The notes under the pieces: model-generated | Databases searched by the model: none | The model's input: only the letters and a program-made list of their open reading frames with translations | What the model was told of the DNA's origin: nothing | Program-made: the position numbers and the translations under genes | DNA from: Deltaproteobacteria bacterium | Lineage (GTDB): Bacteria; Desulfobacterota; Syntrophia; Syntrophales; Smithellaceae | Assembly (NCBI GenBank): GCA_022710585.1 | Contig: JAKLGV010000002.1 | Coordinates: 182,659 to 246,658, forward strand | Direction of reading: 5' to 3' | Length of the DNA stretch: 64,000 bases | Shown: positions 43,330-59,016 of the stretch, piece after piece | Position numbering within the stretch: position 1 is the first letter of the stretch | Layout of the letters: every line of letters starts with the position of its first letter

Positions 43330-44238
43330 TTACTGCAAAACCCGATTGATATTCTTGCGGACTTTTTCCATGTCCGCCTGATACTTGCAAATAATGTTGA
43401 GTGTTTCCGAAACAACTTCAGGTGTCAGTTCGTTGATTTGCAGAGCAATCAGCGACTGCGCCCAGTCAATCGTTTCCGAAATACTCGGATTTTTTTTCAA
43501 ATCCAGCTTGCGAATTTTGCGGATTGCGTCCACCAGAGCGTCGCAGAGTTTTTCTTCGATACCCGGAATCTTCAACCGCACAATGGAAATTTCCGTATCC
43601 CGCGCCGGATAATCAATGTAGAGATGAACGCAGCGGCGTTTCAGCGCGTCGCTCATATCGCGGTAGTTGTTGGATGTCAGCAGCACAAAGGGAATCTGAA
43701 TAGCCTTGCGGGTGCCCAGTTCCGGAATGGAAACCTGAAAATCACTTAAGATTTCCAGAAGAAATGCCTCAAATTCCGGATCGGCCTTGTCCACTTCATC
43801 CACGAGAAGCACGACAGGTTTTTCAGAACTGATCGCCTGCAGCAGCGGCCGATGCTGAATGAAACGGTCGGAGAAAAAGGCGTCTTCCTGCGCGGCGATC
43901 TGATCGACCGCCTGCGTCAGCGTTGCGGCAGAAGAAATGATGTCGTTGAGCCTGTCCTTGACCATCTGAGTGTAAAGAAGCTGCTTGGCGTATTCCCATT
44001 CATAAAGCGCCTTGGCTTCGTCCAAGCCTTCATAGCATTGTAAACGGATCAGTTCTCTGTCCAGAGAGCGGGCAATGGCCTTGGCCAGTTCCGTTTTGCC
44101 GACACCGGCCGGTCCCTCAACCAGAACCGGTTTCTGTGTCGCCGCCGCCAGAAACACAACCGTGGCAATTTCCCGCGAGGGGATATATCCGGCATCCGTC
44201 AGCTTGGCTTGAACATCATCGACATTTTTATATTCCAT
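43330..44238 (-). CDS. MoxR-family AAA+ ATPase (CoxD-like)
   Basis: Walker A VLVEGPAGVGKT and Walker B VVLLVDEVDKA are present. Alternative upstream start at 44298. Confidence 0.85.
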   Translation of the reverse strand: MEYKNVDDVQAKLTDAGYIPSREIATVVFLAAATQKPVLVEGPAGVGKTELAKAIARSLDRELIRLQCYEGLDEAKALYEWEYAKQLLYTQMVKDRLNDIISSAATLTQAVDQIAAQEDAFFSDRFIQHRPLLQAISSEKPVVLLVDEVDKADPEFEAFLLEILSDFQVSIPELGTRKAIQIPFVLLTSNNYRDMSDALKRRCVHLYIDYPARDTEISIVRLKIPGIEEKLCDALVDAIRKIRKLDLKKNPSISETIDWAQSLIALQINELTPEVVSETLNIICKYQADMEKVRKNINRVLQ

Positions 44239-44405
44239 AAGTAAATAAGTTCCTTTTCTTGTTGCGCGAAGCATAGGTGATTTAGAAGGGTATGTCAATC
44301 AGGAACAGGATAGTAAATATTGTGAAATATTATTTTACGCGTAAGATGAAATGCTTTAATTTCAGCAGGAACCATGAACGATAAGATAAAGAATGGATAA
44401 TTCCA

Positions 44406-44434
44406 TTGACATAACGTAAGGATATCCGTATAGT
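44406..44434 (+). promoter_or_regulatory. Putative sigma-70-like promoter of the defence island (TTGACA-17 nt-TATAGT)
   Basis: TTGACA lies at 44406-44411 and TATAGT at 44429-44434. It sits in a 230-nt AT-rich gap, about 94 nt upstream of the res ATG. Confidence 0.45.
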
Positions 44435-44527
44435 TCTTGCCGTTTAAAAAGCGCACAATTTAAATCTGTATCTTCTTAATACATTCTTGATAATAAATTG
44501 CAACTCGTGGGGAGAAGGCAGCTCAAC

Positions 44528-47500
44528 ATGGAAAACCGCTTTTTTGAAAAACCGATTCTGAATTCACCATATAAATATCCTTCGAGGCACTGGGAACTTG
44601 ATGAACAAGGCCAACCGACGCAGCAGATTATAGAAAAGCGCCGTCGTGCTGAATATATCACGCCAATTCCCAAACCTAAAAAACGGAAATCAACAGTCGC
44701 ACAACAGGATATTATTTTTGATGAAGGCAAGGGACTTTCAACGGCAAAACAGCAGTATGATCCTACGCCGGTCATTAATAATTTACGCTACTACGTAGAT
44801 AAATGGCGCAGTATCCCTAATCCCAGCGATTGGAAAGTGACGCCGGAAACAGCGCGACTGTTGCAACACTGGCGACACCATCAGTTTAACGCTTATCGTC
44901 CATTCTTTTGCCAGGTCGAGGCAATCGAAACAGTTATCTGGTTAACCGAAGTTGCACCCAATGAAAAGGCCGGCAAAGAATTTCTCGAACACTTAGCAAA
45001 CGCAAACAATTACGCCAATCCTGATTTGTCACGTCTGGCGCTTAAACTGGCTACTGGCGCCGGTAAGACCACGGTGATGGCTATGTTAATCGCGTGGCAG
45101 ACCATTAATGCCGTGCGTCATCCCAATAGCAAGAAATTTACCCGTGGATTTCTGGTAGTCACTCCGGGCATCACTATTAAAGACCGGTTACGAGTGCTCC
45201 AGCCTAATGATCCGGATAGCTATTACAAAAATCGGGAACTGGTGCCCAATGATATGATGCGCGAACTTGAACGCGCCAAAATTGTCATCACCAATTACCA
45301 TGCTTTTAAACAGCGTGATCTGTTGGAATTATCCAAGGGTGGTCGCGCGCTACTTCAGGGAAGAGGCGGAGAGGAACTGAAGACACTTGAGACAGAAGGC
45401 CAGATGCTTCAGCGCGTCATGCCGGAACTGATGGGTATGAAAAATGTCATGATTATGAATGACGAGGCACACCACTGCTACCGCGAAAAACCTGACCACG
45501 GTGAAGATGAAGAATTAAAAGGTGACGATAAAAAAGAAGCGGAAAGCAACAATGAAGCCGCGCGACTCTGGATTAACGGCATCGAGACCGTAACCCGGAA
45601 AATCGGCGTGAATCAGGTGATGGATTTATCGGCAACTCCGTTTTTTCTGCGCGGTTCCGGTTATGCCGAAGGCACATTATTTCCCTGGACGATGTGCGAC
45701 TTTTCACTGATGGATGCCATCGAATGCGGCATCGTCAAGCTTCCCCGTGTTCCCGTGGCCGATAATATTCCTGGCGCTGAAGTTCCCATGTTTCGCAATC
45801 TCTGGGAGCACATCCGCAAAGACATGCCCAGAAAGGGACGTGGCAAGGCAACCGGACTTGATCCGCTGAAATTGCCCACACGTTTACAGACAGCATTGGA
45901 AGCGCTTTATGGCCACTACGAAAAAACGTTCAATCTTTGGAAAGAAAACCGCATGCAGTTGCCGCCATGTTTTATTGTGGTTTGCAACAATACATCAACA
46001 TCAAAACTGGTCTATGACTACATTGCCGGTTTTGAATATCCCGAGAAAGAAGATGGCGTCACGCCGCCGCCATTTCAGGGTAAATTCAAACTATTTTCCA
46101 ACTATGATGAATATGGCAATCCATTGGCCAGACCAAGAACGCTTTTGATTGACAGCGAGCAACTGGAATCAGGCGATGCCCTGGATGACAATTTCCGCTC
46201 CATGGCGGCCACAGAGATTGAACGTTTCCGCCGGGAAATCATTGAACGCACCGGCGACCGCAGCCAGGCTGACAAACTGACCGATCAGGATTTACTGCGC
46301 GAAGTCATGAACACCGTCGGCAAAAAAGATCGTCTTGGCGAATCGATTCGCTGTGTCGTGTCGGTATCCATGCTGACGGAAGGATGGGATGCCAACACGG
46401 TCACCCACGTCCTGGGTGTGCGCGCCTTTGGTACACAGCTTTTATGCGAACAGGTCATTGGCCGCTCTTTGCGTCGTCAATCCTATGAACTAAATGATGA
46501 CGGTCTGTTTAATGTTGAATATGCCGATGTGTTGGGCATTCCCTTTGACTTTACCGCCAAGCCAGTGGTGGCGCCGCCGCAGCCGCCACGTGAAACCGTT
46601 CGCGTCAAAGCGGTCCGCCCGGAACGCGATCATCTGGAAATCCGATTTCCCCGTGTCGCCGGTTATCGTGTTGAGCTTCCTGAAGAAAAATTGACAGCAT
46701 CGTTTACCAAAGACTCCGAACTGGATTTGACGCCTGATCTAGTTGGCCCGACCAACACACGCAATCAAGGCATAATCGGCGAAGGTGTGGATTTAAATCT
46801 CATTCATACCGGAGACCTGCGTCACTCGACGCTTGTCTTTCATCTGACCAAGCGGCTGATTTACACCAAATATCGTGATCCCGGCGAGGAACCGAGACTG
46901 CATTTGTTCGGACAACTAAAACGCATTACGAAAGACTGGCTGGATCAATGCCTGATTTGCAAAGGAGGCACATATCCGGCGCAGCTTATGTATCAGGAAC
47001 TTGCCGATATGGCCTGCGAAAGGATCACCGCTGCCATTATGAGTTCACTTGAAGGTACTCATCCCATTGTGGCCGTTCTTGATTCCTACAATCCAACGGG
47101 TTCCACCATACACGTAAATTTCAATACATCCAGAACCGACCGATGGGAAACAGACGCCCGGCGCTGTCACATCAACTGGGTGATTCTGGATAGCGACTGG
47201 GAAGCGGAATTCTGCCGTGTGGCGGAAGCGCATCCGAAAGTTAAATCTTACGTTAAAAATCATAACCTTGGTTTGGAAGTGCCTTATCGCTACGGCTCAG
47301 AAACACGCATTTATCTTCCCGACTTTATCGTCCAGATTGATGATGGCCACGGTGAGAAAGACTTGCTCAATCTCATTGTGGAAATCAAAGGTTATCGCCG
47401 GGAGGATGCCAAAGACAAGAAATCAACCATGGAGACCTATTGGATACCCGGTGTGAACAATAATGGCCAGTTTGGCCGCTGGGCCTTTGCCGAATTTACA

Positions 47501-47593
47501 GAAGTCTATCAAATCGAGTCCGATTTCAAGGCAAAAGTCGAAAAAGCGTTTGATAATATGATTGGTAAATTCATTTCTAACTCTAAGGGTTAA
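44528..47593 (+). CDS. res: Type III-like restriction enzyme Res subunit (SF2 DEAH helicase + C-terminal PD-(D/E)xK nuclease)
   Basis: MENRFFEKPILNSPYKYPSRHWELDEQGQPT N-terminus. Motif I is KLATGAGKTTVMA, motif II is MNDEAHHCY, and motif VI is TEGWDANTVTHVLGVRAF..QVIGRSLRR. The nuclease-like segment is YLPDF...VEIKG. GGAGAAGG lies upstream. Confidence 0.85.
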   Translation: MENRFFEKPILNSPYKYPSRHWELDEQGQPTQQIIEKRRRAEYITPIPKPKKRKSTVAQQDIIFDEGKGLSTAKQQYDPTPVINNLRYYVDKWRSIPNPSDWKVTPETARLLQHWRHHQFNAYRPFFCQVEAIETVIWLTEVAPNEKAGKEFLEHLANANNYANPDLSRLALKLATGAGKTTVMAMLIAWQTINAVRHPNSKKFTRGFLVVTPGITIKDRLRVLQPNDPDSYYKNRELVPNDMMRELERAKIVITNYHAFKQRDLLELSKGGRALLQGRGGEELKTLETEGQMLQRVMPELMGMKNVMIMNDEAHHCYREKPDHGEDEELKGDDKKEAESNNEAARLWINGIETVTRKIGVNQVMDLSATPFFLRGSGYAEGTLFPWTMCDFSLMDAIECGIVKLPRVPVADNIPGAEVPMFRNLWEHIRKDMPRKGRGKATGLDPLKLPTRLQTALEALYGHYEKTFNLWKENRMQLPPCFIVVCNNTSTSKLVYDYIAGFEYPEKEDGVTPPPFQGKFKLFSNYDEYGNPLARPRTLLIDSEQLESGDALDDNFRSMAATEIERFRREIIERTGDRSQADKLTDQDLLREVMNTVGKKDRLGESIRCVVSVSMLTEGWDANTVTHVLGVRAFGTQLLCEQVIGRSLRRQSYELNDDGLFNVEYADVLGIPFDFTAKPVVAPPQPPRETVRVKAVRPERDHLEIRFPRVAGYRVELPEEKLTASFTKDSELDLTPDLVGPTNTRNQGIIGEGVDLNLIHTGDLRHSTLVFHLTKRLIYTKYRDPGEEPRLHLFGQLKRITKDWLDQCLICKGGTYPAQLMYQELADMACERITAAIMSSLEGTHPIVAVLDSYNPTGSTIHVNFNTSRTDRWETDARRCHINWVILDSDWEAEFCRVAEAHPKVKSYVKNHNLGLEVPYRYGSETRIYLPDFIVQIDDGHGEKDLLNLIVEIKGYRREDAKDKKSTMETYWIPGVNNNGQFGRWAFAEFTEVYQIESDFKAKVEKAFDNMIGKFISNSKG

Positions 47594-47594
47594 T

Positions 47595-49130
47595 ATGACT
47601 TCTACAAGAATAAAAATATTTATCAGCAGCGTTCAAAAAGAATTTACGCAGGAACGCAAATCTCTTCGTGACTTCCTTCGAGGTGATGCGCTCTTACGTC
47701 GGTTCTTCGATGTTTTTCTTTTTGAGGAGGTGCCGGCCAAAGATCAACGGGCAGATGAATTATATCTTGATGAAGTTGAAAAATCCTCCATCTATATCGG
47801 AATACTTGGCAATGAATATGGTATGCCAGTTAAAGGCGGGTTGTCAGCAACCCATATGGAATTTTTACATGCAACGGAACGCCGAAAACATCGACTTGTT
47901 TTTGTCAAAGGTGCGGACGATTCCGCCCGCGAGCCGGCAATGAAAAATCTAGTCAAAGAAGCATCATCCCAGCTAATACGCCGCCGCTTTTCAACAACGG
48001 CTGAATTGATTGCCGGTGTTTATGGTAGCTTAGTAGATTATCTGGATGACAATGGTCTATTGCGTTCGGGACCATTTGACGCTTCCATTTGCGAAGATGC
48101 CGATTTGAAGGATATATCTGCCTCTAAAGTAAAGTGGTTTCTCGAAATGGCGCGCGAATCGCGGGATTTTCCACTGAATGCCGGAACCGCTGTCAAGACG
48201 GTACTCTCACATTTACGCCTTGTCAAAAATAACAGACCTACCAATGCGGCGATCCTTCTTTTCGGTAATGAACCTCAGCGTTTTATTTACTCTTCTGAAG
48301 TGAAGTGCGCACATTTTCACGGCACGCAGGTTCAAAAACCCATTCCTTTTTATCAGGTATATAAAGGCAATCTTTTTGATTTGGTTGATCAGGCGGTCAA
48401 TTTCGTCTTGTCCAAAATTGATCTTGCCGTAGGAACCCGCGCCGAAAGTATTCAGGCACCGGTTGCTTATGAAATCCCGAAGGAAGTAATTAGTGAATCT
48501 ATTGTCAACGCTATAGCACATCGCGATTATACCAGTGCTGCCAGTGTTCAGGTCATGCTCTTTTCCGACCGTCTGGAAGTCTGGAATCCGGGCGAGCTAC
48601 CTTCATCACTTTCTCTAAAGTCTTTATTAAAACCGCACGGTTCATATCCTAGAAATCCTCTGATTGCAGAACCTCTTTATCTGACAAAGTATATTGAGCG
48701 CATGGGCACCGGTATAAGAGACATGGTAGACCGATGTCGTGATGCAGGATTGACTGAGCCATCATTTAAACTCACCGATGGCTTTGTGGCAACAATTTAC
48801 CGCAAACCGGGTGTAGCTTTAGAAACTGTCAGCAAGGCATCGGGAATAATTACTCAAGCAGAATCGGCGGACCAGGTTGGGACTAAGTCGGGACTAAGTC
48901 GGGACCAGGTGGAAATACTCCGTAAGTGCCTGAAAGATCAAGCCGTTGCCGACCTAATGGCGATTATTGGAAGAACAAATAGGACCAAGTTCAGGGACCA
49001 GGTACTCAATCCTCTGATTGAAAAGGATCTCATTACTATGACCATTCCCGATAAACCGACAAGCAGCAAACAGAAATACCGGTTGACCGGCAAAGGTCGC
49101 AATTTCATCGAAAAACTGGCAAAGAAATAA
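47595..49130 (+). CDS. DUF4062 N-terminal domain fused to a COG2865-type HATPase_c_4 module and C-terminal wHTH-like region
   Basis: The ATG is 1 nt after the res stop. IKIFISSVQKEF..ER...SSIYIGILGNEYG matches the DUF4062 pattern. PTNAAILLFG...SIVNAIAHRDY...DRLEVWNPG...RNPLIA...IERMGTGIRD matches the module often annotated as RecG-like or as a Schlafen-related transcriptional regulator. Confidence 0.7.
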   Translation: MTSTRIKIFISSVQKEFTQERKSLRDFLRGDALLRRFFDVFLFEEVPAKDQRADELYLDEVEKSSIYIGILGNEYGMPVKGGLSATHMEFLHATERRKHRLVFVKGADDSAREPAMKNLVKEASSQLIRRRFSTTAELIAGVYGSLVDYLDDNGLLRSGPFDASICEDADLKDISASKVKWFLEMARESRDFPLNAGTAVKTVLSHLRLVKNNRPTNAAILLFGNEPQRFIYSSEVKCAHFHGTQVQKPIPFYQVYKGNLFDLVDQAVNFVLSKIDLAVGTRAESIQAPVAYEIPKEVISESIVNAIAHRDYTSAASVQVMLFSDRLEVWNPGELPSSLSLKSLLKPHGSYPRNPLIAEPLYLTKYIERMGTGIRDMVDRCRDAGLTEPSFKLTDGFVATIYRKPGVALETVSKASGIITQAESADQVGTKSGLSRDQVEILRKCLKDQAVADLMAIIGRTNRTKFRDQVLNPLIEKDLITMTIPDKPTSSKQKYRLTGKGRNFIEKLAKK

Positions 49131-49157
49131 GAAGAGCAAAAACTGAAAGGTAATCAG

Positions 49158-52142
49158 ATGGCTGTAAAGAAAACAAATGGAAAGAAAATAGAAACGCTTA
49201 TTCATGATGAGGCGAGGCGTAAAAATATTCCGACTGCCGAGTTTCAGTCTGTCATCCAGAAAGAAGCGCAGGACCCGCTGAAAATAAAATATCCGCGTAA
49301 CGTTGATGGATTGAACGAAGAAAAAGAAAACCGCAACCGCGACCTTGATCCGCAACTGGTCTGGCGTGGCAAGGATGAGCAGGACTGGTCGGATTTGGTC
49401 GTTCATGCGCCGCCGCTTTACATTCAGGAAAAAGTTCATCCCAAAGTTTTGATTGATGACTTGCTGAAACGCACCGAATCCGACAAGCAGGCCGCCGAAA
49501 CGCAAACCGACCTCTTTGCCGATTTCAACGGCATGCCGGAAGATGCGACCAAGACAGATTTCTATCAGCACGACCAGAACTGGTCCAACCGCATGATTCT
49601 GGGCGACAGCCTTCAGGTGATGGCGAGTTTAGCCGAGCGTGAAGGTCTGCGCGGCAAGGTGCAATGCATTTATTTTGATCCACCTTACGGCATCAAGTTC
49701 AACTCCAACTTTCAATGGTCAACCACCAGCCGCGACGTTAAAGACGGCAAGGCCGATCACATCACCCGCGAGCCCGAGCAGGTCAAAGCCTTCCGCGACA
49801 CCTGGCGCGACGGGATTCACTCCTACCTGACGTATCTACGCGACCGACTGACGGTGGCGAGGGATTTATTGACTGAAAGTGGCTCGATCTTTGTCCAAAT
49901 CGGCGATGAAAATGTCCACCGCGTTCGGGCAGTGATGGATGAAGTGTTCGGGGAGGAGAACTGCGTAAGTCTGATTCATTTTGTAAAGACGACCGGGAAA
50001 GGTGGCGAGACGGTCGACACAATTACTGACGAAATACTTTGGTATTGCCGGAACAGAGAGCAGCTCAAGGTACGCTCTTTGTGGGCGGAAAGACCTCGCG
50101 CCACTCAGATTAAAATGTTCACGATGGCACAGCGGCCTGATCTATCTGTCTACACCATACCAAGGAAGCAACTTGAATCTGGTGATTTACCAGAAGCTGA
50201 TCGTTGCTTTAAGCCGCAAGGCATGTTTAATGACAGTGGCGGACAAACTACCCGTTACGAGTATTCGTTTGAGTGTAAATCACTCGTGCCTCCTGGCTCC
50301 TACTATTGGCGAACGAATATTGATGGTATGCAGCGGGTTGAAAAATCCGGACGGCTTATCCTGATAGGTAACACACTATCACGCAAGCAATTCGAGGATG
50401 ATTTTCCAGTTACTAGAGTAACTGCGTTATGGCTGGACACGATGCCTTCGGGGTTTGCCTCTGAATCGAGCATCTATGTTGTGCAAACCTCTACCAAAGT
50501 CATTCAACGCTGCCTCCTCATGACCACCGACCCCGGAGACCTCGTACTCGACCCGACATGCGGTTCGGGTACGACAGCTTATGTATCTGAGCAGTGGGGA
50601 CGTCGCTGGATTACAATTGATACCTCACGTGTCGCGCTGGCTCTTGCCCGTGCCCGCATTATGGGCGCGCGTTATCCTTATTATCTGCTGGCTGACAGTC
50701 GCGACGGTCAACTAAAGGAGGCAGAAGTCAGCCGTAAAGAACCCTCCAGCGCACCGACGCATGGCGACATCCGCCAGGGTTTTGTTTATGAGCGCGTTCC
50801 GCACATTACACTCAAATCCATCGCCAACAATACCGAAATCGACGTGATCTGGGAAAAATGGCAGGAAAAGCTCGAACCAATCCGTAAAAAGTTAAATGAA
50901 GCCCTTGGTAAAAAATGGGAAGAATGGGAAATCCCGCGCGACTTCTCCACCGTCATTCCCGCGAAGGCGGGAATCCAGGAAAAAATGAAAGAAGTTGAAA
51001 AGCTTCATACCCAATGGTGGCAACATCGTATCAAGCGCCAAAAAGAAATCGATGCCTCTATAGCCGCCAAGGCTGAATACGAATATCTCTACGACAAACC
51101 TTATGAGGACAAAAAGAAAGTCCGCGTTGCGGGACCTTTCACGGTGGAAAGCCTCTTGCCGCATCGCGTGTTGGGTGTGGATGAAAACGATGAACTGATT
51201 GACGGCGTAAAAGATGCCAGTGATAAATACGGAACTGTACGCGACTTCACACAGATTATTCTGGAAAATCTTAAAGTGGCCGGTGTTCAGCAGGCACACA
51301 AAGAAGATAAAATCGTCTTCACGTCGTTGACACCTTGGCCGGGTTACTACATCTGCGCCGAAGGCAAATACATCGAAGGCGCTTCCATTAAACCCGCGCC
51401 CCTGGTGGGCGAAAGCAAGGGCATACAAAAAAATCCCGCACTGGGAGAAAAGGGCGCACCAAATAATCCCTCTCCCTTGACGGGAGAGGGTAAGGGTGAG
51501 GGTGAAAATGTGATTGCAGGTATAGAAAAACGCGCCGCCATCTTCATTGGCCCGGAATTCAGTACAGTTTCCCGTCCCGATCTGGTTGCCGCCGCCCGCG
51601 AAGCAGGCGACGCCGACTTTGATGTGCTCATCACCTGTGCTTTCAATTATGATGCCCATTCTTCTGAATTCAACAAACTGGGACGCATTCCTGTTCTCAA
51701 AGCTCGCATGAATGCCGATTTACATATGGCCGACGATTTGAAAAACACCGGCAAAGGCAATCTTTTTGTCATCTTTGGAGAGCCCGACATTGACGTCCTG
51801 GATACCAAAGACGGAAAAGTTCAAGTTAAAATCAAAGGAGTGGATGTCTTTCATCCCAGCACCGGCGAAGTCCTTAGCGATGGCGCCGAAGGCATTGCCT
51901 GCTGGTTTATCGATACGGATTACAACGAAGAAAGCTTCTTCGTCCGTCATGCCTATTTCCTGGGAGCAAACGACCCATACAAAGCATTGAAGACGACACT
52001 CAAAGCGGAAATCAACCAGGAAGCATGGGCAACGCTGAACAGCGACATTTCCCGCCCCTTCGACAAACCCAACTCCGGTCGCATCGCCGTAAAAGTAATC
52101 AACCATTTAGGTGATGAGGTGATGAAGGTGTTTAAGGTGTGA
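49158..52142 (+). CDS. mod: Type III-like DNA methyltransferase Mod (N6_N4_Mtase, beta-class motif order)
   Basis: Catalytic motif IYFDPPYG precedes SAM motif LDPTCGSGTTAYV. DPQLVWRGK lies in the N-terminal region. 994 aa. Confidence 0.85.
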   Translation: MAVKKTNGKKIETLIHDEARRKNIPTAEFQSVIQKEAQDPLKIKYPRNVDGLNEEKENRNRDLDPQLVWRGKDEQDWSDLVVHAPPLYIQEKVHPKVLIDDLLKRTESDKQAAETQTDLFADFNGMPEDATKTDFYQHDQNWSNRMILGDSLQVMASLAEREGLRGKVQCIYFDPPYGIKFNSNFQWSTTSRDVKDGKADHITREPEQVKAFRDTWRDGIHSYLTYLRDRLTVARDLLTESGSIFVQIGDENVHRVRAVMDEVFGEENCVSLIHFVKTTGKGGETVDTITDEILWYCRNREQLKVRSLWAERPRATQIKMFTMAQRPDLSVYTIPRKQLESGDLPEADRCFKPQGMFNDSGGQTTRYEYSFECKSLVPPGSYYWRTNIDGMQRVEKSGRLILIGNTLSRKQFEDDFPVTRVTALWLDTMPSGFASESSIYVVQTSTKVIQRCLLMTTDPGDLVLDPTCGSGTTAYVSEQWGRRWITIDTSRVALALARARIMGARYPYYLLADSRDGQLKEAEVSRKEPSSAPTHGDIRQGFVYERVPHITLKSIANNTEIDVIWEKWQEKLEPIRKKLNEALGKKWEEWEIPRDFSTVIPAKAGIQEKMKEVEKLHTQWWQHRIKRQKEIDASIAAKAEYEYLYDKPYEDKKKVRVAGPFTVESLLPHRVLGVDENDELIDGVKDASDKYGTVRDFTQIILENLKVAGVQQAHKEDKIVFTSLTPWPGYYICAEGKYIEGASIKPAPLVGESKGIQKNPALGEKGAPNNPSPLTGEGKGEGENVIAGIEKRAAIFIGPEFSTVSRPDLVAAAREAGDADFDVLITCAFNYDAHSSEFNKLGRIPVLKARMNADLHMADDLKNTGKGNLFVIFGEPDIDVLDTKDGKVQVKIKGVDVFHPSTGEVLSDGAEGIACWFIDTDYNEESFFVRHAYFLGANDPYKALKTTLKAEINQEAWATLNSDISRPFDKPNSGRIAVKVINHLGDEVMKVFKV
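50955..50974. repeat. Perfect hairpin element ATTCCCGC-GAAG-GCGGGAAT inside mod
   Basis: 8-bp stem with a 4-nt loop. In frame it encodes VIPAKAGIQ. The opposite strand encodes LDSRLRGNDG. Confidence 0.5.
51468..51502. repeat. Hairpin CCCTCTCCC-TTGAC-GGGAGAGGG followed by G-tracts (G3N3G3N3G3N3G3) inside mod
   Basis: 9-bp stem at 51468-51476 and 51482-51490. GGGAGAGGGTAAGGGTGAGGG at 51482-51502 fits a G-quadruplex motif. In frame it encodes PSPLTGEGKGEGE. Confidence 0.5.
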
Positions 52143-52173
52143 TAAGTATTAATTACCAATTTAAGGTCAATAT

Positions 52174-54786
52174 ATGAGCTTGATTGATGACATTCTTAAG
52201 TGGTCAGAAAATGAACTTCCTTTATGGCAAAGAGACGCGACGAGGCGTCTCTTTCAGCAAAGTGTCGGATTAACAGATAATGATTACACAGAATTGTATA
52301 GTTTGCTAAAAGCTGCATATGGCTTGCAAAATCCAGCTAATTTAAAACCTATACCATTAAATAGCTCACATCTTCCGATAGCTCCACCTTCTAACGAAAG
52401 AGTTATTTTAAAATCAATGCGAGACTTAAAATATGTTAATCGTATAGCACCTGCTCAAGTATTAGACTTTGCGCCTATTGGAATAACTTTGATTTACGGT
52501 GACAATGGGACAGGTAAATCTGGTTATTCGCGGGTGATGAAACGGGCATGTCGTTCACGCGATCATTCAGAAAGAGTTCTTACCGACGTGACTGATGCCA
52601 AAGCAAGAACACGAATTCCGGAAGCCATTTTTGATATAGAAATAAACAGCGCAGCTAAATCGGTGACATGGATTGATGGTTCGACTACGCCCGATGAGCT
52701 ATCAACCATCTCTGTTTTTGATTGTCATTGTGCGCGTGTCTATCTAACAGAAGAACAGGATGTTGCTTTCTTACCCTATGGATTAGATATAGTTGAAAGT
52801 CTTGCAAATAAAGTAATTCCGGAATTGAGTCTTCGTCTTGAAAATGAAATATCTTGTATCGACGTTGATAGGCAGCCGTTTAATCATTTGCTTGGCGAAA
52901 CGGAAGTCGGTCGTTTAGTCGCTGGGCTGAACGCAAATACTGACATCGAAAGTATTAAGAAATTAGGGAATTTGTCTGACGAGGAGAAAAAACGGATTGA
53001 AGACCTCAACACCGCTTTGTCAGAAGTAGATCCAGCTACAAAAGCTAAAGTATTGAGACTGTCAGCAGAAAGATTGAAAGAACTTGCTAAAAGAATTGAT
53101 AATTGCCTTGCAAGAGTCAGTGATGACAACATACAAAAAATTATTAATTTAGATGCAGATGCAATTGCTGCTTGTAATGAAGAGAAGAAAGCAGCCGAAG
53201 TATTACGCACTGGTGGAAATCTATTGCCTGGCACAGGCGAACACTTATGGAAAACTCTTTTTGAAGCAGCAAAAAAGTATTCTCAAGTTGCATATCCTAC
53301 ACAATCTTTTCCATATCTGGGAACTGACGCTGTCTGTCTTCTTTGTCAACAACCATTGATAGATGTCGGTGATAGAATTAAAAGATTTGATACTTATGTT
53401 TTAAATGATGTTGCTCAGATTGCTAAAACAAAAAAACAATTAGTTGAAGCAACAAGTAATGAGCTTAAACAATCTAATTTAAGTTTTGGGTTAGATAAAT
53501 CTTTAACAGATGAGCTGCGGCTTATTGATGAAGTTGCAGTGAACAAAATTAACACATTTCAGGAGAATATTGCGACACGAAAAGAATGGATAATTTCTAA
53601 TATTGAGTCACATGAATGGGATTCAATACCATTATTGAGTGAAAACCCGCGAAAACATCTAAGAAACATGGCGGCTCAGCAACTTAAGTCTGCAAGGATA
53701 TTTCTTCGAGCAGCTAATTCACTTAAAAAGCAAGAGTTGATAAAAGAACGTAATGAATTGATTGCCCGTCAAACTTTAGGACAAAGTAAGGCGTCTCTTA
53801 TTGCAACGATACAGCGAATGAAACTACGAAAAACGCTGGAATCTTGTAAAAACGATCTTAAAACGAGATCTATTTCTGATAAATCTAAGGTTTTTGCCAG
53901 GGAAACTATAACCCCTCTTCTGAAGAATGCATTGGAAGAGGAGTTTCGGGCTTTGGGTATTGGCCATATAAAAATTAAAGTTGAGGATCGTCCAGAAAAA
54001 GGGAAAATATGGTATCGACTCTTACTTGATCTACCATCAGCTCATAAGCTTGATAACATTCTTAGTGAAGGTGAACAACGCGCAATTGCATTAGGTTCGT
54101 TTTTGGCAGAATTAAAACTTTCTAATCATTCGGGTGGCATAATCTTTGATGATCCTGTCTCATCTTTGGATCATAAACATCGTGGCCGATTTGCAAAGCG
54201 CATAGCAAGTGAAGCGCAGAAACGACAAGTCATAATATTTACACATGATGTAGTTTTCTTATCTCAAATAAGGAGTGAATGTGCAAAGTTAAATATAAAT
54301 CCGCTGACTTATTTTCTTGAAGAAAATGTCGGTTTTTTTGGAAATGTAGCAAAGGGACTTCCATGGATGCATAAAAGCTTTGGCGAACGTATTGACCAAC
54401 TTGAAAAAGCTCATAAAGCATTAGAAAAATTGCCTTGGCCAGCAAGCCCATCTGAAGAATTGGCGGGTAAGATTATTAGACAATATAGTTTTCTCAGAGC
54501 TACGATAGAACGAATAGTGCAAGATTTGATCCTAAACGGAACAGTGCAGAGATTTCGTGATTACATTGAGGTAAAAAAACTTGACCAAGTAGTTGGCCTT
54601 GAACGGGCAGTGGTGGATGAAGTATTTCGACTTTATAAACGATGTAACGATATTATCGAGGCTCATGATCCGGCATCAGTAAAAAATGATCCACCGCCTA
54701 CGCCTGATGAACTGAAAAACGATATTAAAGATCTGAAATATTTAATTGAGAAGGTTCAAGAAAAACATAAGAGTAATAAATCGTAA
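52174..54786 (+). CDS. AAA_13-type ABC/SMC-like ATPase with coiled-coil insert and CxxC hook (RloC/PrrC-like architecture)
   Basis: Walker A is YGDNGTGKSG (about 52498-52524). A long K/E/L-rich helical insert contains CLLC (C388/C391, nt 53335-53346). ABC signature LSEGEQRA, Walker B IIFDDPVSSLD and H-loop FTHD are present. A C-terminal domain of about 190 aa is unassigned. Confidence 0.75.
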   Translation: MSLIDDILKWSENELPLWQRDATRRLFQQSVGLTDNDYTELYSLLKAAYGLQNPANLKPIPLNSSHLPIAPPSNERVILKSMRDLKYVNRIAPAQVLDFAPIGITLIYGDNGTGKSGYSRVMKRACRSRDHSERVLTDVTDAKARTRIPEAIFDIEINSAAKSVTWIDGSTTPDELSTISVFDCHCARVYLTEEQDVAFLPYGLDIVESLANKVIPELSLRLENEISCIDVDRQPFNHLLGETEVGRLVAGLNANTDIESIKKLGNLSDEEKKRIEDLNTALSEVDPATKAKVLRLSAERLKELAKRIDNCLARVSDDNIQKIINLDADAIAACNEEKKAAEVLRTGGNLLPGTGEHLWKTLFEAAKKYSQVAYPTQSFPYLGTDAVCLLCQQPLIDVGDRIKRFDTYVLNDVAQIAKTKKQLVEATSNELKQSNLSFGLDKSLTDELRLIDEVAVNKINTFQENIATRKEWIISNIESHEWDSIPLLSENPRKHLRNMAAQQLKSARIFLRAANSLKKQELIKERNELIARQTLGQSKASLIATIQRMKLRKTLESCKNDLKTRSISDKSKVFARETITPLLKNALEEEFRALGIGHIKIKVEDRPEKGKIWYRLLLDLPSAHKLDNILSEGEQRAIALGSFLAELKLSNHSGGIIFDDPVSSLDHKHRGRFAKRIASEAQKRQVIIFTHDVVFLSQIRSECAKLNINPLTYFLEENVGFFGNVAKGLPWMHKSFGERIDQLEKAHKALEKLPWPASPSEELAGKIIRQYSFLRATIERIVQDLILNGTVQRFRDYIEVKKLDQVVGLERAVVDEVFRLYKRCNDIIEAHDPASVKNDPPPTPDELKNDIKDLKYLIEKVQEKHKSNKS

Positions 54787-54794
54787 TAAGCACC

Positions 54795-55118
54795 ATGAAT
54801 CATAACCGTATAAAAATTGAGTTTTTCCTAAATGAAATAAAAGGTGAAGGTAAATCAAGCCCCGCCGGTATGTATTGGAACGACTTTTTCCTGTTTCTTA
54901 AAAAACACAAAAGCCATAACGAACCTGATCCACCGGTTCCTTTAATACTGGCTGCATCGGGAGAATCAGACGCTTCAAAACATTTTAGGTTATCGGAACA
55001 GTTATATTGGGCTGCAGATCATAATTGTCTTGATGAAGCGATTAAGTTTCTGAAAAATATAAGTTCTGAAAAGTGGAATAAAGGTGCACTGGAAGACTGG
55101 AATAAATCCAACTACTAG
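54795..55118 (+). CDS. Hypothetical 107-aa protein
   Basis: The ORF sits 8 nt after the ATPase stop and 10 nt before the helicase start. It has no recognisable motif and no clear SD. Its AT-rich composition matches the upstream gene. Confidence 0.45.
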   Translation: MNHNRIKIEFFLNEIKGEGKSSPAGMYWNDFFLFLKKHKSHNEPDPPVPLILAASGESDASKHFRLSEQLYWAADHNCLDEAIKFLKNISSEKWNKGALEDWNKSNY

Positions 55119-55128
55119 AGATTATATA

Positions 55129-57210
55129 ATGAACTTCCGCATTGCCGACACATTTACTGACAGTTTATCCAAACTGACCAATGAAGAACAGAAAGCAGTG
55201 AAAACAACCGCTTTTGATCTTCAGATGAATCCGGCCAATCCGGGAATGCAGTTTCATAAGCTGGAAAAGGCAAGGGATAAACGTTTCTGGTCTGTGCGTG
55301 TCAGCAGTGATTTGCGCCTGATTGTTCATAGAACAGAGGACAGTCTTCTTTTGTGTTATGTCGACCATCACGACAATGCCTATCAGTGGGCTGAAAGCCG
55401 CAAACTGGAAACCCACCCACAGACCGGCGCTGCGCAATTGGTTGAGATTCGGGAAACCGTCAAGGAAATTATCATTCCACAATATAAAGAAGCTGAAAAA
55501 CCGGCCGCACAAGCAAAACCTCTTCTGTTTAAAGATTGTACTGATGATGAACTGCTGAAGTACGGCGTGCCGACTGAATGGCTTGATGATGTCCGCAAAG
55601 TCAGTGAGGATACCATACTGGAACTAGCCGACCATCTGCCGGGTGAAGCGGCGGAAGCGCTTTTGTGTTTAGCTACGGGAACACAGCCGCAAATCATTCC
55701 GCCTGCCGCTGTCGGTTCTGATCCATTCAAACATCCGGATGCCGAACGTCGTTTCCGCACCATGCAGAATATTGAAGAACTGGAACGCGCTTTGGAATTC
55801 CCATGGGAAAAATGGATGATTTTTCTCCATCCTGCGCAAAGGCAAATGGTGGAAAAAGATTATGGTGGTCCGACAAGAGTTTCCGGTTCGGCAGGGACAG
55901 GCAAAACCATTGTTGCCCTGCATCGGGCTGTCTTTTTGTCGCGCTCCAATCCCGATGCCCGCTTGCTTCTGACTACTTTTTCCGATACTTTGGCCAATGC
56001 TTTACGTATCAGAATGAGACGTTTGATTAGCAATACGCCACGAGTAGGCGAACGTCTGGAGTGCATTGCCTTGAATGAAATCGGTTTAAGGCTTTATGAA
56101 GCGAAGAACGGTCGCACACGTATTGTATCCGATGCGGAAATTGCCAAGATCATGAAAGAGGCCTCCACGGAAGTTCCTGACCATAAATTTCCGTTATCTT
56201 TTTTGATTACCGAATGGAAAGATGTTGTGGATGCCTGGCAACTCAATACTTGGGAAGAATATCGCGATGCCAAACGATTGGGGCGAAAATCGAGGTTGCC
56301 GGAAAAACAGCGCGTTGTTCTATGGTCCATATTTGAAAAAGTTCGCGTAAAACTGCAATCGAAAAAACTTTTAACCTATGCGGAAATATTCACAAGGCTG
56401 GCAGCGCACTTTGCAAAAAGTAAGAAACTGCCTTTTGATTATGTTGTAGTGGATGAAGCTCAGGATGTCAGCATCGCTCAATTGAAGTTTCTGGCCGCCT
56501 TGGGCTCCGGTCGCAAGAATGGACTTTTCTTTGCCGGGGATTTGGGGCAAAGAATTTTCCAGCAGCCTTTTTCATGGAAATCGCTGGGCGTTGATATTCG
56601 AGGGCGTTCCCGCACATTGCGAATCAATTACCGGACTTCGCATCAAATTCGCATTCAGGCCGATCGTCTTTTAGGGAAGGAGATTACGGATGTTGACGGC
56701 AATGTTGAAGAACGTCGCGGTATTGTTTCTGTTTTCAACGGGCCAAAACCGGCTATATTAATTTGTGACTCACAAAAAAAAGAAATTGATGCGGTTGCCA
56801 AGTGGATTAAGGAAAGAATCGGTGACGGCATGCTGCCGCATGAGATTGGAATCTTTGTACGAAGCGAGGCTCAATTGCCACGCGCACAATCGGCCGTTGA
56901 AAAATCAAAAAATTCCTATTGTATTCTTGACGACAAGGTGGAAACAGCCAGTGGTAATGTTTCAATCAGCACAATGCACTTGGCCAAGGGACTGGAATTT
57001 TGCGCAGTTTGCGTGATGGCTTGCGATGATAATGTTGTCCCTCTTCAGGAAAGGATTGAGATGGCGGGTGATGATGCCGAATTGGAAGAGGTTTACAACA
57101 CAGAGCGGCATTTGCTTTATGTCGCCTGCACCCGCGCACGGGAACATCTGCTGATTACCAGCGGCGATTCGCCATCCGAATTTCTGGATGATCTGCAGGC
57201 CAATCTTTAA
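55129..57210 (+). CDS. SF1 UvrD-like helicase with RelE/HigB/ParE-like N-terminal domain
   Basis: The N-terminus is MNFRIADTFTDSL...FHKLEKARDKRFWSVRVSSDLRLIVHRTEDSLLLCYVDHHDNAY. Helicase motifs are I GSAGTGKT, II VVVDEAQD, YRTSHQI, MHLAKGLEF and LLYVACTRAREHLLIT. The track ORF starts at 55084. Confidence 0.75.
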   Translation: MNFRIADTFTDSLSKLTNEEQKAVKTTAFDLQMNPANPGMQFHKLEKARDKRFWSVRVSSDLRLIVHRTEDSLLLCYVDHHDNAYQWAESRKLETHPQTGAAQLVEIRETVKEIIIPQYKEAEKPAAQAKPLLFKDCTDDELLKYGVPTEWLDDVRKVSEDTILELADHLPGEAAEALLCLATGTQPQIIPPAAVGSDPFKHPDAERRFRTMQNIEELERALEFPWEKWMIFLHPAQRQMVEKDYGGPTRVSGSAGTGKTIVALHRAVFLSRSNPDARLLLTTFSDTLANALRIRMRRLISNTPRVGERLECIALNEIGLRLYEAKNGRTRIVSDAEIAKIMKEASTEVPDHKFPLSFLITEWKDVVDAWQLNTWEEYRDAKRLGRKSRLPEKQRVVLWSIFEKVRVKLQSKKLLTYAEIFTRLAAHFAKSKKLPFDYVVVDEAQDVSIAQLKFLAALGSGRKNGLFFAGDLGQRIFQQPFSWKSLGVDIRGRSRTLRINYRTSHQIRIQADRLLGKEITDVDGNVEERRGIVSVFNGPKPAILICDSQKKEIDAVAKWIKERIGDGMLPHEIGIFVRSEAQLPRAQSAVEKSKNSYCILDDKVETASGNVSISTMHLAKGLEFCAVCVMACDDNVVPLQERIEMAGDDAELEEVYNTERHLLYVACTRAREHLLITSGDSPSEFLDDLQANL

Positions 57211-57239
57211 ATTGAGAAGGATATATTAAGAACATTTTT

Positions 57240-58619
57240 ATGACAGACAGCCCATTCAAATCAGCTTTAAAAGATTATTTCTTTTTCTGGCGGCCTTCGC
57301 TTTCACGAAGGCTGACGCTGGCCTTCACCATTTTCGGCCTGGCTATCGGCTATGCCGTTTATATTTATCTGGCTGTTTCTTCGACGAGTGCCTTTATTCA
57401 TCTGGCGACCGATTCCGTTCAGCAGTACCTTACTTCAGCATCCCGGGAATCCATCAGCAGAAATCAGGGCGAGCTGCTGAAAATAGTCAACGAGCGCATG
57501 ACGCATATCGCCAACGCGACCAGGGCGTTTCAGGGCATTTTCCCTCCGATGAGATATTCTCTTTATTTTAATGACGGCAAGACGTGGCAACACACCTATA
57601 TGAATAAAAAGGGTGAAATTCATTCGGCGCCAATAACCAGCGCGGCGCTTGCCGCGGCACTGGAGGAGACCAAAACAAAAAAAATTATTCAATCGGCCTC
57701 TTTATTTTACGGCATGAACAGTACCGTCAATGTGAAAATCAATATCACTCCCGTGGGCAGTGATTATACGCAAATTTTTACGTTTGATGTCCAACGTCAG
57801 GGATTTCTCAGTGCTTTCTGGATGAACATAGCGAAGGCGCTTCTTTTCTTTCTGCTCCTTTTGCTGGTCTCGCGTTTGCTGGGACAGATCTTCAGCGCCC
57901 GACTGGCCCGTCCCGTTGAGCAGCTTTCCCGGGAAGCGGAAATCATTGCGTCGGGAGATTACGAACGCCGCTTCACAACCGGCCGGAAGGATGAGGTCGG
58001 CCGGCTGGCGGAAGCGCTCAATATCATGGCTTCCCGGATTCTGGATTCGACCAAGGAAAGAGAAAATATTTTTATCGGCATCCTGATTGCTTTGACGCGG
58101 GCCATTGACGCGAAATCGCCGTGGACAGCCGGGCACAGTGAGAGGGTTACCAAATTTGCGGAAGCCATCGGACGGGGGCTTAACTTTAATGAGGATGAAA
58201 TGCGCGCTTTGACGATTTCCGCCATTCTGCACGACATCGGCAAGATTGCCGTGCCGGAACAGATTCTCGATAAACCGGGTAAACTGACCGATGAGGAATT
58301 CGATGTCATCAAAAAACATCCGCAGACCGGTGCGGACATCATTGCTTCCATTCCTTCCTATGAATTGATTCTGACAGGCATTGTACATCATCACGAACGC
58401 TGGGACGGAAAAGGATATCCCGGGGGATTGAGTGAGAAAGACATCCCGTTGATTGCGAGAATCATCTGTATTGCCGATGTGTACGACGCGCTGACGGAAG
58501 ACCGGCCGTACCGCAAGGCGTGGAGCAAAGAACAGGTGCGGCAATTTTTTGAGGAGAACAGAGAGAAAATGTTCGATTCCGACCTGGTGGATATTTTTCT
58601 GAAACTACCTGAGATTTGA
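57240..58619 (+). CDS. Membrane HAMP + HD-GYP domain protein (likely c-di-GMP phosphodiesterase)
   Basis: Two TM segments flank a sensor-like region, followed by a HAMP-like linker. HD (AILHDIGK) and HHERWDGKGYPGG motifs are present. Confidence 0.85.
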   Translation: MTDSPFKSALKDYFFFWRPSLSRRLTLAFTIFGLAIGYAVYIYLAVSSTSAFIHLATDSVQQYLTSASRESISRNQGELLKIVNERMTHIANATRAFQGIFPPMRYSLYFNDGKTWQHTYMNKKGEIHSAPITSAALAAALEETKTKKIIQSASLFYGMNSTVNVKINITPVGSDYTQIFTFDVQRQGFLSAFWMNIAKALLFFLLLLLVSRLLGQIFSARLARPVEQLSREAEIIASGDYERRFTTGRKDEVGRLAEALNIMASRILDSTKERENIFIGILIALTRAIDAKSPWTAGHSERVTKFAEAIGRGLNFNEDEMRALTISAILHDIGKIAVPEQILDKPGKLTDEEFDVIKKHPQTGADIIASIPSYELILTGIVHHHERWDGKGYPGGLSEKDIPLIARIICIADVYDALTEDRPYRKAWSKEQVRQFFEENREKMFDSDLVDIFLKLPEI

Positions 58620-58985
58620 ACTTTTGAGCCAGGCCCTCGCGGTGTCGATATCGAAAAAGTATTTCAATGACAGACCGGCGTTGATGGCTGTGGTCTCCAG
58701 AAAGTTAAGATAATCCTGATTTTCCGGGAGATCAACAAGGGCGCATTTCACTTTTGGCTTTTCGAAAGGTCTCCTGACAAAGGAATAGGTGTCCATGATG
58801 CCCAACCGTCCCTTCAGCGTGCGGATGTCCACCAGGACATGTCTTAATCCTTTTTCGATGATGATCGCAGCTCCTTCGGCCGCCAGTTGATCAATGCCGC
58901 TCTTTGTTATTTCGCCTGTCATTGTTACTTCCAGGATGGTGTCACATACTGATGATGTAATTTGATAGCCTGATTTATTTTCCAT
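58605..58985 (-). CDS. Hypothetical protein (possibly STAS-like fold)
   Basis: 126-aa ORF with no diagnostic motif. Its 3' end overlaps the HD-GYP gene's 3' end by 15 nt. Confidence 0.45.
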   Translation of the reverse strand: MENKSGYQITSSVCDTILEVTMTGEITKSGIDQLAAEGAAIIIEKGLRHVLVDIRTLKGRLGIMDTYSFVRRPFEKPKVKCALVDLPENQDYLNFLETTAINAGLSLKYFFDIDTARAWLKSSNLR

Positions 58986-59016
58986 TATTTTTCTTTCATA
59001 ACGTTAAGCTCTTATG

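Follow-up and report, generated by a model that had tools for sequence, protein, structure and literature searches.

What are four further genes doing in and after a res/mod pair that resembles a Type III restriction-modification (RM) system? The question is raised by six genes, here called in order Res, P2, Mod, g4, g5 and g6, in a 64,000-nucleotide stretch of a Deltaproteobacteria bacterium of the family Smithellaceae (GenBank assembly GCA_022710585.1, contig JAKLGV010000002.1, positions 182,659 to 246,658; the whole stretch is hereafter the window). Embedded genes are familiar from RM loci: PrrC sits inside EcoprrI, rlo genes lie within Type I and Type III loci, effectors are embedded in Type I loci, and the Fic, YhcG/DUF1016, Bro-N and HATPase_c_4 families are common inserts in Type I loci. 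The canonical Type III system is a two-gene operon in which mod precedes res; its ATP-dependent cleavage calls for unmethylated sites in inverse orientation, and hemimethylation is protective. The original prediction, made from this DNA alone, read the six genes as a layered RM island with abortive-infection or backup functions, probably transcribed as one unit, with four non-RM genes interleaved in a Type III-like res/mod pair. The interleaving stands, and comparison with related loci assigns the four genes different roles. We consider it likely that the six genes make up a single cassette, horizontally mobile and probably with one transcript, that consists of a conserved core (Res, Mod and g6, joined in this lineage by g5) and two cargo slots; the mechanistic part of this reading we infer.

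Core genes, cargo slots and mobility

Diverged loci that carry a P2 homologue keep the frame Res, P2, Mod, X, g6, in which X varies: locus L012 has a gene of 119-131 aa there together with an FRG-domain gene, and L014 has an AAA ATPase and an S8 protease. Because this frame is kept while X changes, species-representative genomes were scanned with g6 as the anchor. The scan returned at least 533 related stretches, from which 80 loci were kept, 64-72% identical and spread over more than 15 phyla. Gene order was read by tBLASTn with the six window proteins; most of the hosts are metagenome-assembled genomes, and cargo open reading frames (ORFs) were called mechanically. The interval between Mod and g6 is measurable in 65 loci (63 of them from the g6 scan) and that between Res and Mod in 42.

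Wherever a locus extends at least 3.5 kb upstream of g6, Mod is found there in the same orientation; the two exceptions, L092 and L093, show a Res match and no Mod. Res, in turn, lies upstream of Mod wherever the fetched range extends far enough, that is, in the 42 measurable loci. The order Res, Mod, g6 is repeated in 20 IMG/VR viral contigs. On a conjugative plasmid of Pseudomonas avellanae the three core genes are tightly packed and both slots are empty; the Prokaryotic Genome Annotation Pipeline (PGAP) names them 'BPTD_3080 family restriction endonuclease', 'site-specific DNA-methyltransferase' and '3'-5' exonuclease'. Among plasmids with a Res at least 52% identical, g6 is present in 11 of 13 records, and the other two are interrupted by a Tn3 transposase. 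The catalytic motifs of Res, Mod and g6 are conserved in all 27 complete loci, and pairwise identities correlate among the three proteins (r = 0.30-0.56; of 2000 permutations, 0-5 give a value as high). The notion of four equivalent add-ons is therefore not supported, since g6 is a conserved third core gene, always 3' of Mod in related loci; on these gene orders, only P2 and g4 behave as cargo.

We define slot A as the gap between Res and Mod and slot B as the gap between Mod and g6. Slot A is empty (17-127 nt) in half of the measurable loci (21/42) and spans 348-2391 nt in the remainder; slot B is empty (at most 77 nt) in 10 of 65 loci and reaches 9.9 kb in others. Together they contain 155 ORFs in 92 clusters, all co-oriented with the core save for short, probably spurious ORFs. 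According to per-protein PADLOC and Pfam scans, slot B holds IetA with IetS, HamA with HamB (Hachiman), SIR2 with HerA, a GmrSD-like HEC-06/Orf5 protein, Dsr1, SIR2-pAgo (prokaryotic Argonaute), a UG5-nitrilase DRT (defence-associated reverse transcriptase), AbiP2, Ppl, QatA (Qat), LmuB (Lamassu), NsnA/B-like proteins and an ABC-3C component. Slot A holds Fic, YhcG/DUF1016, Bro-N and P2-like proteins, the last in 6 of the 44 loci compared. Judged by sequence identity, cargo is exchanged rapidly between scaffolds: L026, L029 and L042, whose helicases are the most alike (93-94% identical), each have a different and unrelated cargo, and loci with a common cargo are no closer to one another than background. 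The slots are bordered by the conserved C-terminus of Mod and by the N-terminal region of g6, from which the family-specific search motifs were taken.

A set of three genes encoding proteins of about 254, 181 and 137 aa recurs in slot B of 6-9 loci from different species (L022:4174-5844, L036:761-2438, L044:270-1952, L067:2993-4663 and L089:8282-9976; also L040 and L078). It has no Pfam match and a weak PDC-M32A match only, and is a candidate undescribed defence module.

The cassette also recurs as a whole. An exact look-up of P2 returned its own contig together with contigs in which the six genes follow either purC and Mrr or HsdM and RhuM. By BLASTN, the DNA shared with L002-L004 covers window positions 44540-57197 (12,658 bp, 98.1% identical); it begins 12 nt into Res and ends 13 nt short of the g6 stop, and the flanks are unrelated. 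L007 is 94% identical over the 6.6 kb of the block that it holds, and P2 is 100% identical in the second-context copies. Since the same block lies in different contexts with unrelated flanks, the arrangement is not core synteny, and the view of the island as one unit is upheld. In the second context (L002:3633-4391, L007:3788-6717) purC is upstream of the cassette, and the genes just before it are an Mrr-type nuclease in some contigs and HsdM plus RhuM in another; this site is itself a variable defence hotspot. An empty site was sought by exact look-up of the HD-GYP protein encoded to the right of the island in the window; island-bearing contigs alone were returned, so the insertion is not delimited against a naive locus.

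The six proteins

Res belongs to the BPTD_3080 family (NCBIfam NF046055, 1392.3 bits against a curated cutoff of 800), with a match that spans residues 6-1003 against profile positions 1-969 of 970. Pfam assigns it ResIII and RE_endonuc domains, and its motifs TGAGKT (I), DEAHH (II), QVIGRSLRR (VI) and PD...EIK, conserved in 27/27 loci, point to a superfamily 2 (SF2) helicase with a C-terminal PD-(D/E)xK nuclease. Mod is an N6_N4_Mtase by Pfam and matches the PADLOC MTase_III model PDLC03632 with 1410 bits; its nearest solved relatives are the Mods of EcoP15I and of the Helicobacter pylori Type III system. The order of its motifs, DPPYG (IV) before DPTCGSGTT (I), is that of beta-class N6/N4 methyltransferases, and DPPYG and an FxGxG-type motif are invariant across the loci compared. 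The least conserved part of Mod (26-35%) comprises residues ~300-450, between the catalytic halves, and this hypervariable centre sits where a recognition domain would be expected. The motifs that the original prediction read in the sequence, namely the helicase and nuclease motifs of Res and DPPY followed by TCGSGTT in Mod, thus prove invariant or nearly so in 27 related loci; its domain calls for P2 (DUF4062-HATPase_c_4), g4 (AAA_13) and g6 (a helicase with a toxin-like N-terminus) are likewise recovered by Pfam.

Mod of the window also contains an in-frame insertion (Table 1). Within it lies a perfect palindrome (51468-51490), which is unique in the window and absent from the shuffles, and which reads CCCTCTCCC-TTGAC-GGGAGAGGG. 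It looks like a REP/MITE-type element (repetitive extragenic palindrome or miniature inverted-repeat transposable element) that is translated through as '...SPLTGEGKGEGE...'. At the same point L014 has a shorter version and L012 a different insert.

The occupant of slot A, P2, comprises a DUF4062 domain (PF13271, E = 5.6e-20), HATPase_c_4 and a Fic-like_C winged helix, a three-domain architecture shared, at 57-81% identity, by more than 100 clusters that span many phyla. DUF4062 proteins of the Swarozyc and Evangelion systems are TIR-like NADases that act by abortive infection (10.64898/2026.05.01.722283; 10.64898/2026.06.25.731849), and neither HATPase_c_4 nor an RM context is mentioned in these two reports. 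The P2 profile matches the DUF4062 structure of KpSwz (10wc) with E = 1e-5. Residue E89, invariant in 15 homologues, aligns opposite the alanine of the E97A construct in 10wc and would be the catalytic glutamate position of the TIR-like DUF4062 domain; by this analogy, P2 is a predicted TIR-like NADase.

Most members of the P2 family lie inside Type I RM loci. Its immediate same-strand upstream neighbours (n=51) include N6_Mtase/HsdM (12), Methylase_S (8), ResIII (7) and EcoEI_R_C (6), and its downstream neighbours (n=41) Methylase_S (6), N6_N4_Mtase (5) and HsdR-type genes (2-3; see also L011), and only about 8 of 80 P2-anchored metagenomic loci are BPTD_3080 loci. Because RM genes dominate its neighbourhood, mostly outside BPTD_3080 loci, P2 is best regarded as a general RM-embedded gene. 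In slot A of L035 (2531-4012) the P2 chassis of HATPase_c_4 and helix-turn-helix is retained with a dCMP/cytidine deaminase domain in place of DUF4062, a swap that fits a sensor with an exchangeable toxic head.

The occupant of slot B, g4, is an ABC-type ATPase (Pfam AAA_13) and corresponds to the PADLOC candidate PDC-S06 (PDLC04891, 622.6 bits), which it matches over the full length (residues 1-865; profile positions 1-857 of 858). As cargo it is a singleton in the compared loci, where it is confined to the window cassette and its near-identical copies. PADLOC also reports weak matches of g4 to PrrC (residues 656-705, 26.9 bits) and LmuB. We rejected a PrrC-like anticodon nuclease as an identity for g4: the PrrC match covers about 50 residues of the ATPase only, and the C-terminal 176 aa have no Pfam match and no recognisable anticodon-nuclease domain.

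The third core protein, g6, has UvrD-helicase and UvrD_C domains by Pfam and a weak, below-threshold HigB-like match at its N-terminus. A structural model of residues 1-232 has a predicted local distance difference test (pLDDT) score of 70-84 across residues 1-95, and a Foldseek search with it retrieves YoeB, RelE and YafQ structures with probability 1.00 and template-modelling (TM) scores up to 0.77. In the profile alignment FWSVRV..RLIV...SLLL..HH of g6 pairs with the YoeB motif. Residues R63, H80, H81 and Y85 are invariant in 27/27 loci, in which the Walker motifs are also conserved. The toxin fold suspected at the N-terminus is thus recovered by both model and fold search. Over residues 5-686, g6 is 31% identical to an Escherichia coli helicase that is the fourth gene of an ARMADA-II-type locus (L180:1889-18115, NZ_CP062895; L177). 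That locus adjoins uxuA, occurs in 533 of 5426 complete genomes and also on IncY plasmids, and encodes in order a helicase, a class I methyltransferase of 1637 aa, a YprA-like (DEAD+MZB) helicase and a UvrD-like helicase; as read from the sequence, this order matches the published ARMADA type II arrangement. In its predicted RelE/YoeB fold, its UvrD domains, this identity and its place as the last core gene in all loci, g6 resembles ArmD, and we regard it as an ArmD-like helicase in which a RelE/YoeB-fold N-terminus is fused to a UvrD-type superfamily 1 (SF1) motor. Its close relatives are labelled Smithella or Deltaproteobacteria, and PGAP calls such relatives '3'-5' exonuclease'.

The small protein g5 had been taken for an orphan and an independent add-on, and neither description fits. 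Although domain-library searches gave no match, homologues make up at least 107 protein clusters. Five other loci were fetched through three of these homologues, and in each of the five the gene overlaps the stop codon of Mod and ends 2-20 nt short of g6. A profile search places it in 2 of the 80 genome loci, just 5' of g6 in L063 and in slot A of L095. It therefore sits between Mod and g6 in the window, in L063 and in the five fetched loci, with L095 as the exception, and is an optional companion that is usually directly upstream of g6. In the window g4 lies between Mod and g5. A pairing of g5 with g4 was considered and rejected; the five other loci fetched for g5 all lack g4.

Layout, transcription and flanks

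Table 1. Features of the cassette, in window coordinates.
Feature	Position	Strand	Description
Sigma-70-like promoter TTGACA-17-TATAGT	44406-44434	+	~94 nt 5' of the Res start codon; predicted from sequence
Res	44528-47593	+	Core gene 1; likely ATG start
P2	47595-49130	+	Slot A cargo; likely ATG start
Mod	49158-52142	+	Core gene 2; likely ATG start
Insertion in Mod	51381-51506	+	In-frame, 42 aa; most homologous Mods are without it
g4	52174-54786	+	Slot B cargo; likely ATG start
g5	54795-55118	+	Optional companion, 107 aa; likely ATG start
g6	55129-57210	+	Core gene 3; likely ATG start

The six ORFs of the original prediction are confirmed by ORF calls with likely ATG starts, which leave intergenic gaps of 1, 27, 31, 8 and 10 nt. 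The proposed promoter is the top promoter-like match (11/12) within 44000-59000; promoter-like sites as a class are not enriched there (16 found against 21.5 expected from shuffles). The second-context copies L002 and L007 carry TTGACA-17-TATACT at a similar upstream distance, though their flanks are otherwise unrelated. A search for + strand terminators between the cassette genes found none that is convincing. The six genes are probably transcribed as one unit, as far as the sequence can tell.

Both neighbours are as first described. To the left lie an AAA_5/AAA_3 ATPase and a VWA_CoxE protein on the opposite strand; to the right is a gene with HAMP and HD_5/HD (HD-GYP) domains. The interval between the g6 stop and the start of this gene (57210-57240) is 29 nt long and holds no terminator-like structure, so transcription of the cassette may continue into this host signalling gene.

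Base composition sets part of the cassette apart. The GC content of g4 and g5 is 0.37, whereas Res, Mod and g6 have 0.47-0.50 and the window as a whole 0.49; g4 has a GC of 0.376 and a third-codon-position GC (GC3) of 0.258, and the GC3 of g5 is 0.33. These low values indicate that the g4-g5 segment (52174-55118) is of other origin than the surrounding scaffold.

Mechanism, alternatives and known systems

We propose that Mod would methylate host sites, and that Res together with Mod would carry out an ATP-dependent search for unmethylated incoming DNA and cut it, with the g6 motor acting on DNA that Res has engaged or cut. P2 would serve as a sensor-effector: its HATPase_c_4 and winged-helix parts would sense a nucleic-acid or infection cue, upon which DUF4062 would hydrolyse NAD+ and abort the infection, as for Swarozyc and Evangelion. 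The PDC-S06 protein g4 is most likely an autonomous single-gene candidate system, for which the operon would be a vehicle and a source of transcription. In a stronger and more tentative form of this proposal, the triad would be a dedicated carrier of immune genes, in which complete systems are swapped by recombination and P2 and g5 sense the failure of restriction, the whole acting as one multi-layer unit; we consider this form less likely than not.

Several observations weigh against the proposal. The core and cargo roles are established by comparison of loci, whereas restriction, methylation, NADase activity and co-transcription are predicted from sequence. The Mantel-type correlations of identity contain a few close pairs, and the scan, being anchored on g6, shows that g6 implies Res and Mod and not the reverse. 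By sequence, Res falls outside the known Type III Res families: PADLOC REase_III models give it at most 19 bits, and it has no PDB sequence match at E <= 0.01, though the library holds an EcoP15I entry, as is evident from the match of the EcoP15I Mod subunit in the Mod search. Given this lack of similarity to Type III proteins in PADLOC and among solved structures, it is the motifs of Res that suggest Type III-like behaviour. The model of P2 is good at its DUF4062 and winged-helix ends and has pLDDT <50 over ~227-434, so a sensor function for this unreliable middle is a guess. PDC-S06 is a purely computational candidate, and no experimental validation was found in the papers checked among those that mention it. 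Distant BPTD_3080 loci lack g6, for example that on plasmid pAQ5 of Picosynechococcus PCC 7002 (Res 45% identity), and the triad is accordingly a clade within the BPTD_3080 family and not the whole family. The third gene of the pAQ5 locus was considered as a g6 relative and rejected, as it encodes an ABC/deaminase protein.

The pAQ5 locus (L179:12112-12856) also has occupants of its own: Res is separated from Mod by a UPF0175/DUF3368 pair, probably a toxin-antitoxin (TA) pair, and the gene after Mod encodes an ABC-ATPase/deaminase fusion. On this plasmid the slot habit reaches beyond the helicase-bearing clade.

Other explanations can be weighed against the core-and-slots reading. The simplest, that a two-gene Type III-like RM system has gathered four independent add-ons among which g6 and g5 have the same standing as P2 and g4, draws on the position of all four genes in or after the res/mod pair on one strand and on the well-known precedent of PrrC and rlo genes. 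We find it improbable, because virtually all informative loci, from many phyla as well as from viral contigs and plasmids, combine g6 with Mod and Res, whereas g4 is a cargo singleton and P2-like genes occupy slot A in just the six loci counted above; g5, too, lies between Mod and g6 in the loci fetched, except L095. An arrangement in the style of PrrC, in which P2 and perhaps g4 are latent suicide effectors restrained by Res-Mod and released by a phage anti-restriction protein, has more to commend it, and we would call it unlikely rather than improbable. Members of the P2 family occur inside several kinds of RM operon (Type I, BPTD_3080 and a Type I-like HsdM/Eco57I locus), the family's toxic head is exchangeable between NADase and deaminase, g4 shares its ABC-ATPase class with PrrC and RloC and has the weak PADLOC matches described above, and PMC12839542 proposes backup effectors inside BREX loci. 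Against it, no RM gene directly adjoins about a third or more of the P2-family genes, the resemblance of g4 to PrrC ends within the ATPase, short of any recognisable anticodon-nuclease domain, and much of the slot cargo consists of named stand-alone systems (Hachiman, IetAS, SIR2-HerA, Dsr1). Given its RM embedding, a latent coupling of this type is conceivable for P2; for g4 it is unsupported.

The RelE-like domain invites the reading of g5 as an antitoxin and the g6 N-terminus as its toxin, a TA-like addiction pair that stabilises the cassette and takes no part in restriction. The retention of R63, H80, H81 and Y85 in all 27 loci and the place of g5 immediately upstream of g6, the usual antitoxin position, speak for such a pair, to which we nevertheless give little credence: g5 is missing from 78 of the 80 g6 loci, so the RelE domain is normally tolerated without it, and the domain is fused to a helicase with conserved Walker motifs. 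PMC12458937 reports that deleting ArmD or mutating its Walker A motif abolishes an ARMADA II defence described as non-abortive; a second study found a weaker requirement for ArmD (10.1101/2025.09.22.677730). It would be more surprising still if the triad were a module of DNA repair or epigenetic regulation that sits among defence genes by chance. UvrD-type helicases and methyltransferases do serve repair and regulation, and the name '3'-5' exonuclease' that PGAP gives to g6 relatives would suit that role, but the hypervariable centre of Mod, the conserved nuclease motif and the known defence genes in the slots all argue for immunity, as does the distribution of the triad, which is patchy across phyla at 62-79% identity and extends to plasmids and predicted viral contigs.

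If the core-and-slots architecture holds, the system is a common one, with at least 533 stretches in species-representative genomes in addition to plasmids and predicted viral contigs, and we infer from the score of Res (at most 19 bits) that PADLOC would not call the triad as a unit. An ArmD-type RelE-UvrD helicase would then serve at least two unrelated methylation-based helicase systems; its partnership with both ARMADA II and the Type III-like triad points to a general function. The presence of the DUF4062 NADase family inside several types of RM operon would open a route to the coupling of abortive effectors with restriction. Because the bounded slots are strongly enriched for defence systems, their unannotated genes are strong candidates for new ones, and if the triad is indeed a carrier, the slots would act as a trap for unknown systems such as the recurrent three-gene set.

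The original prediction did not recognise the gene combination as a described arrangement. This holds for the architecture, as a core with slots was not found in the literature searched, and it is not so for the parts, which are individually named (BPTD_3080, DUF4062 NADases, PDC-S06 and ArmD-like helicases). Searching the literature for 'BPTD_3080' gave no result; a search on Type III restriction with UvrD/RelE, embedded genes or hotspots found the ARMADA and BREX papers only, in which the triad with two slots is not described. The window is one instance of the architecture, and P2 with PDC-S06 is an uncommon combination of cargo.

Among known systems, ARMADA type II is similar in that an SF2 helicase and a DNA methyltransferase stand in a strict same-strand order that ends in a RelE-UvrD helicase. 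In contrast to ARMADA II, domain scans of the six proteins here find no BrxHII/Swi2-Snf2 ArmA, PglX-like ArmB or YprA/DUF1998 (MZB) ArmC; the partners are instead a BPTD_3080 helicase-nuclease and a beta-class N6_N4 methyltransferase, and cargo slots are found that are not mentioned in the available parts of the ARMADA papers (PMC12458937, 10.1101/2025.09.22.677730). With EcoP15I and EcoP1I the cassette shares a beta-class Mod with a central variable region and a Res with SF2 motifs and a C-terminal PD-(D/E)xK motif. In sequence, Res nonetheless shows no detectable resemblance to the canonical Type III Res proteins, res precedes mod, both proteins are ~1000 aa long and a third conserved helicase gene is present.

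The cargo and the RelE fold have relatives of their own. Like Swarozyc and Evangelion, P2 is a single polypeptide with an N-terminal DUF4062, a catalytic glutamate position and a variable auxiliary region; unlike them, it has HATPase_c_4 and a winged helix as its auxiliary part in place of the KpSwz helical stalk, is embedded in RM loci and is known here from sequence. PrrC and RloC share their ABC-ATPase class with g4, which is without a recognisable C-terminal anticodon-nuclease domain. The RelE fold of Type II RelE/ParE TA systems is present in g6, but fused to a 600-aa helicase rather than as a free-standing small toxin. Finally, the cassette resembles RM and BREX loci with embedded genes in that accessory and abortive-infection genes lie inside a modification-based defence operon. 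It differs from them in having two defined slots in a three-gene scaffold, in a slot B that holds whole multi-gene systems (Hachiman, Qat, SIR2-HerA and pAgo) and in a cargo that turns over between nearly identical scaffolds.

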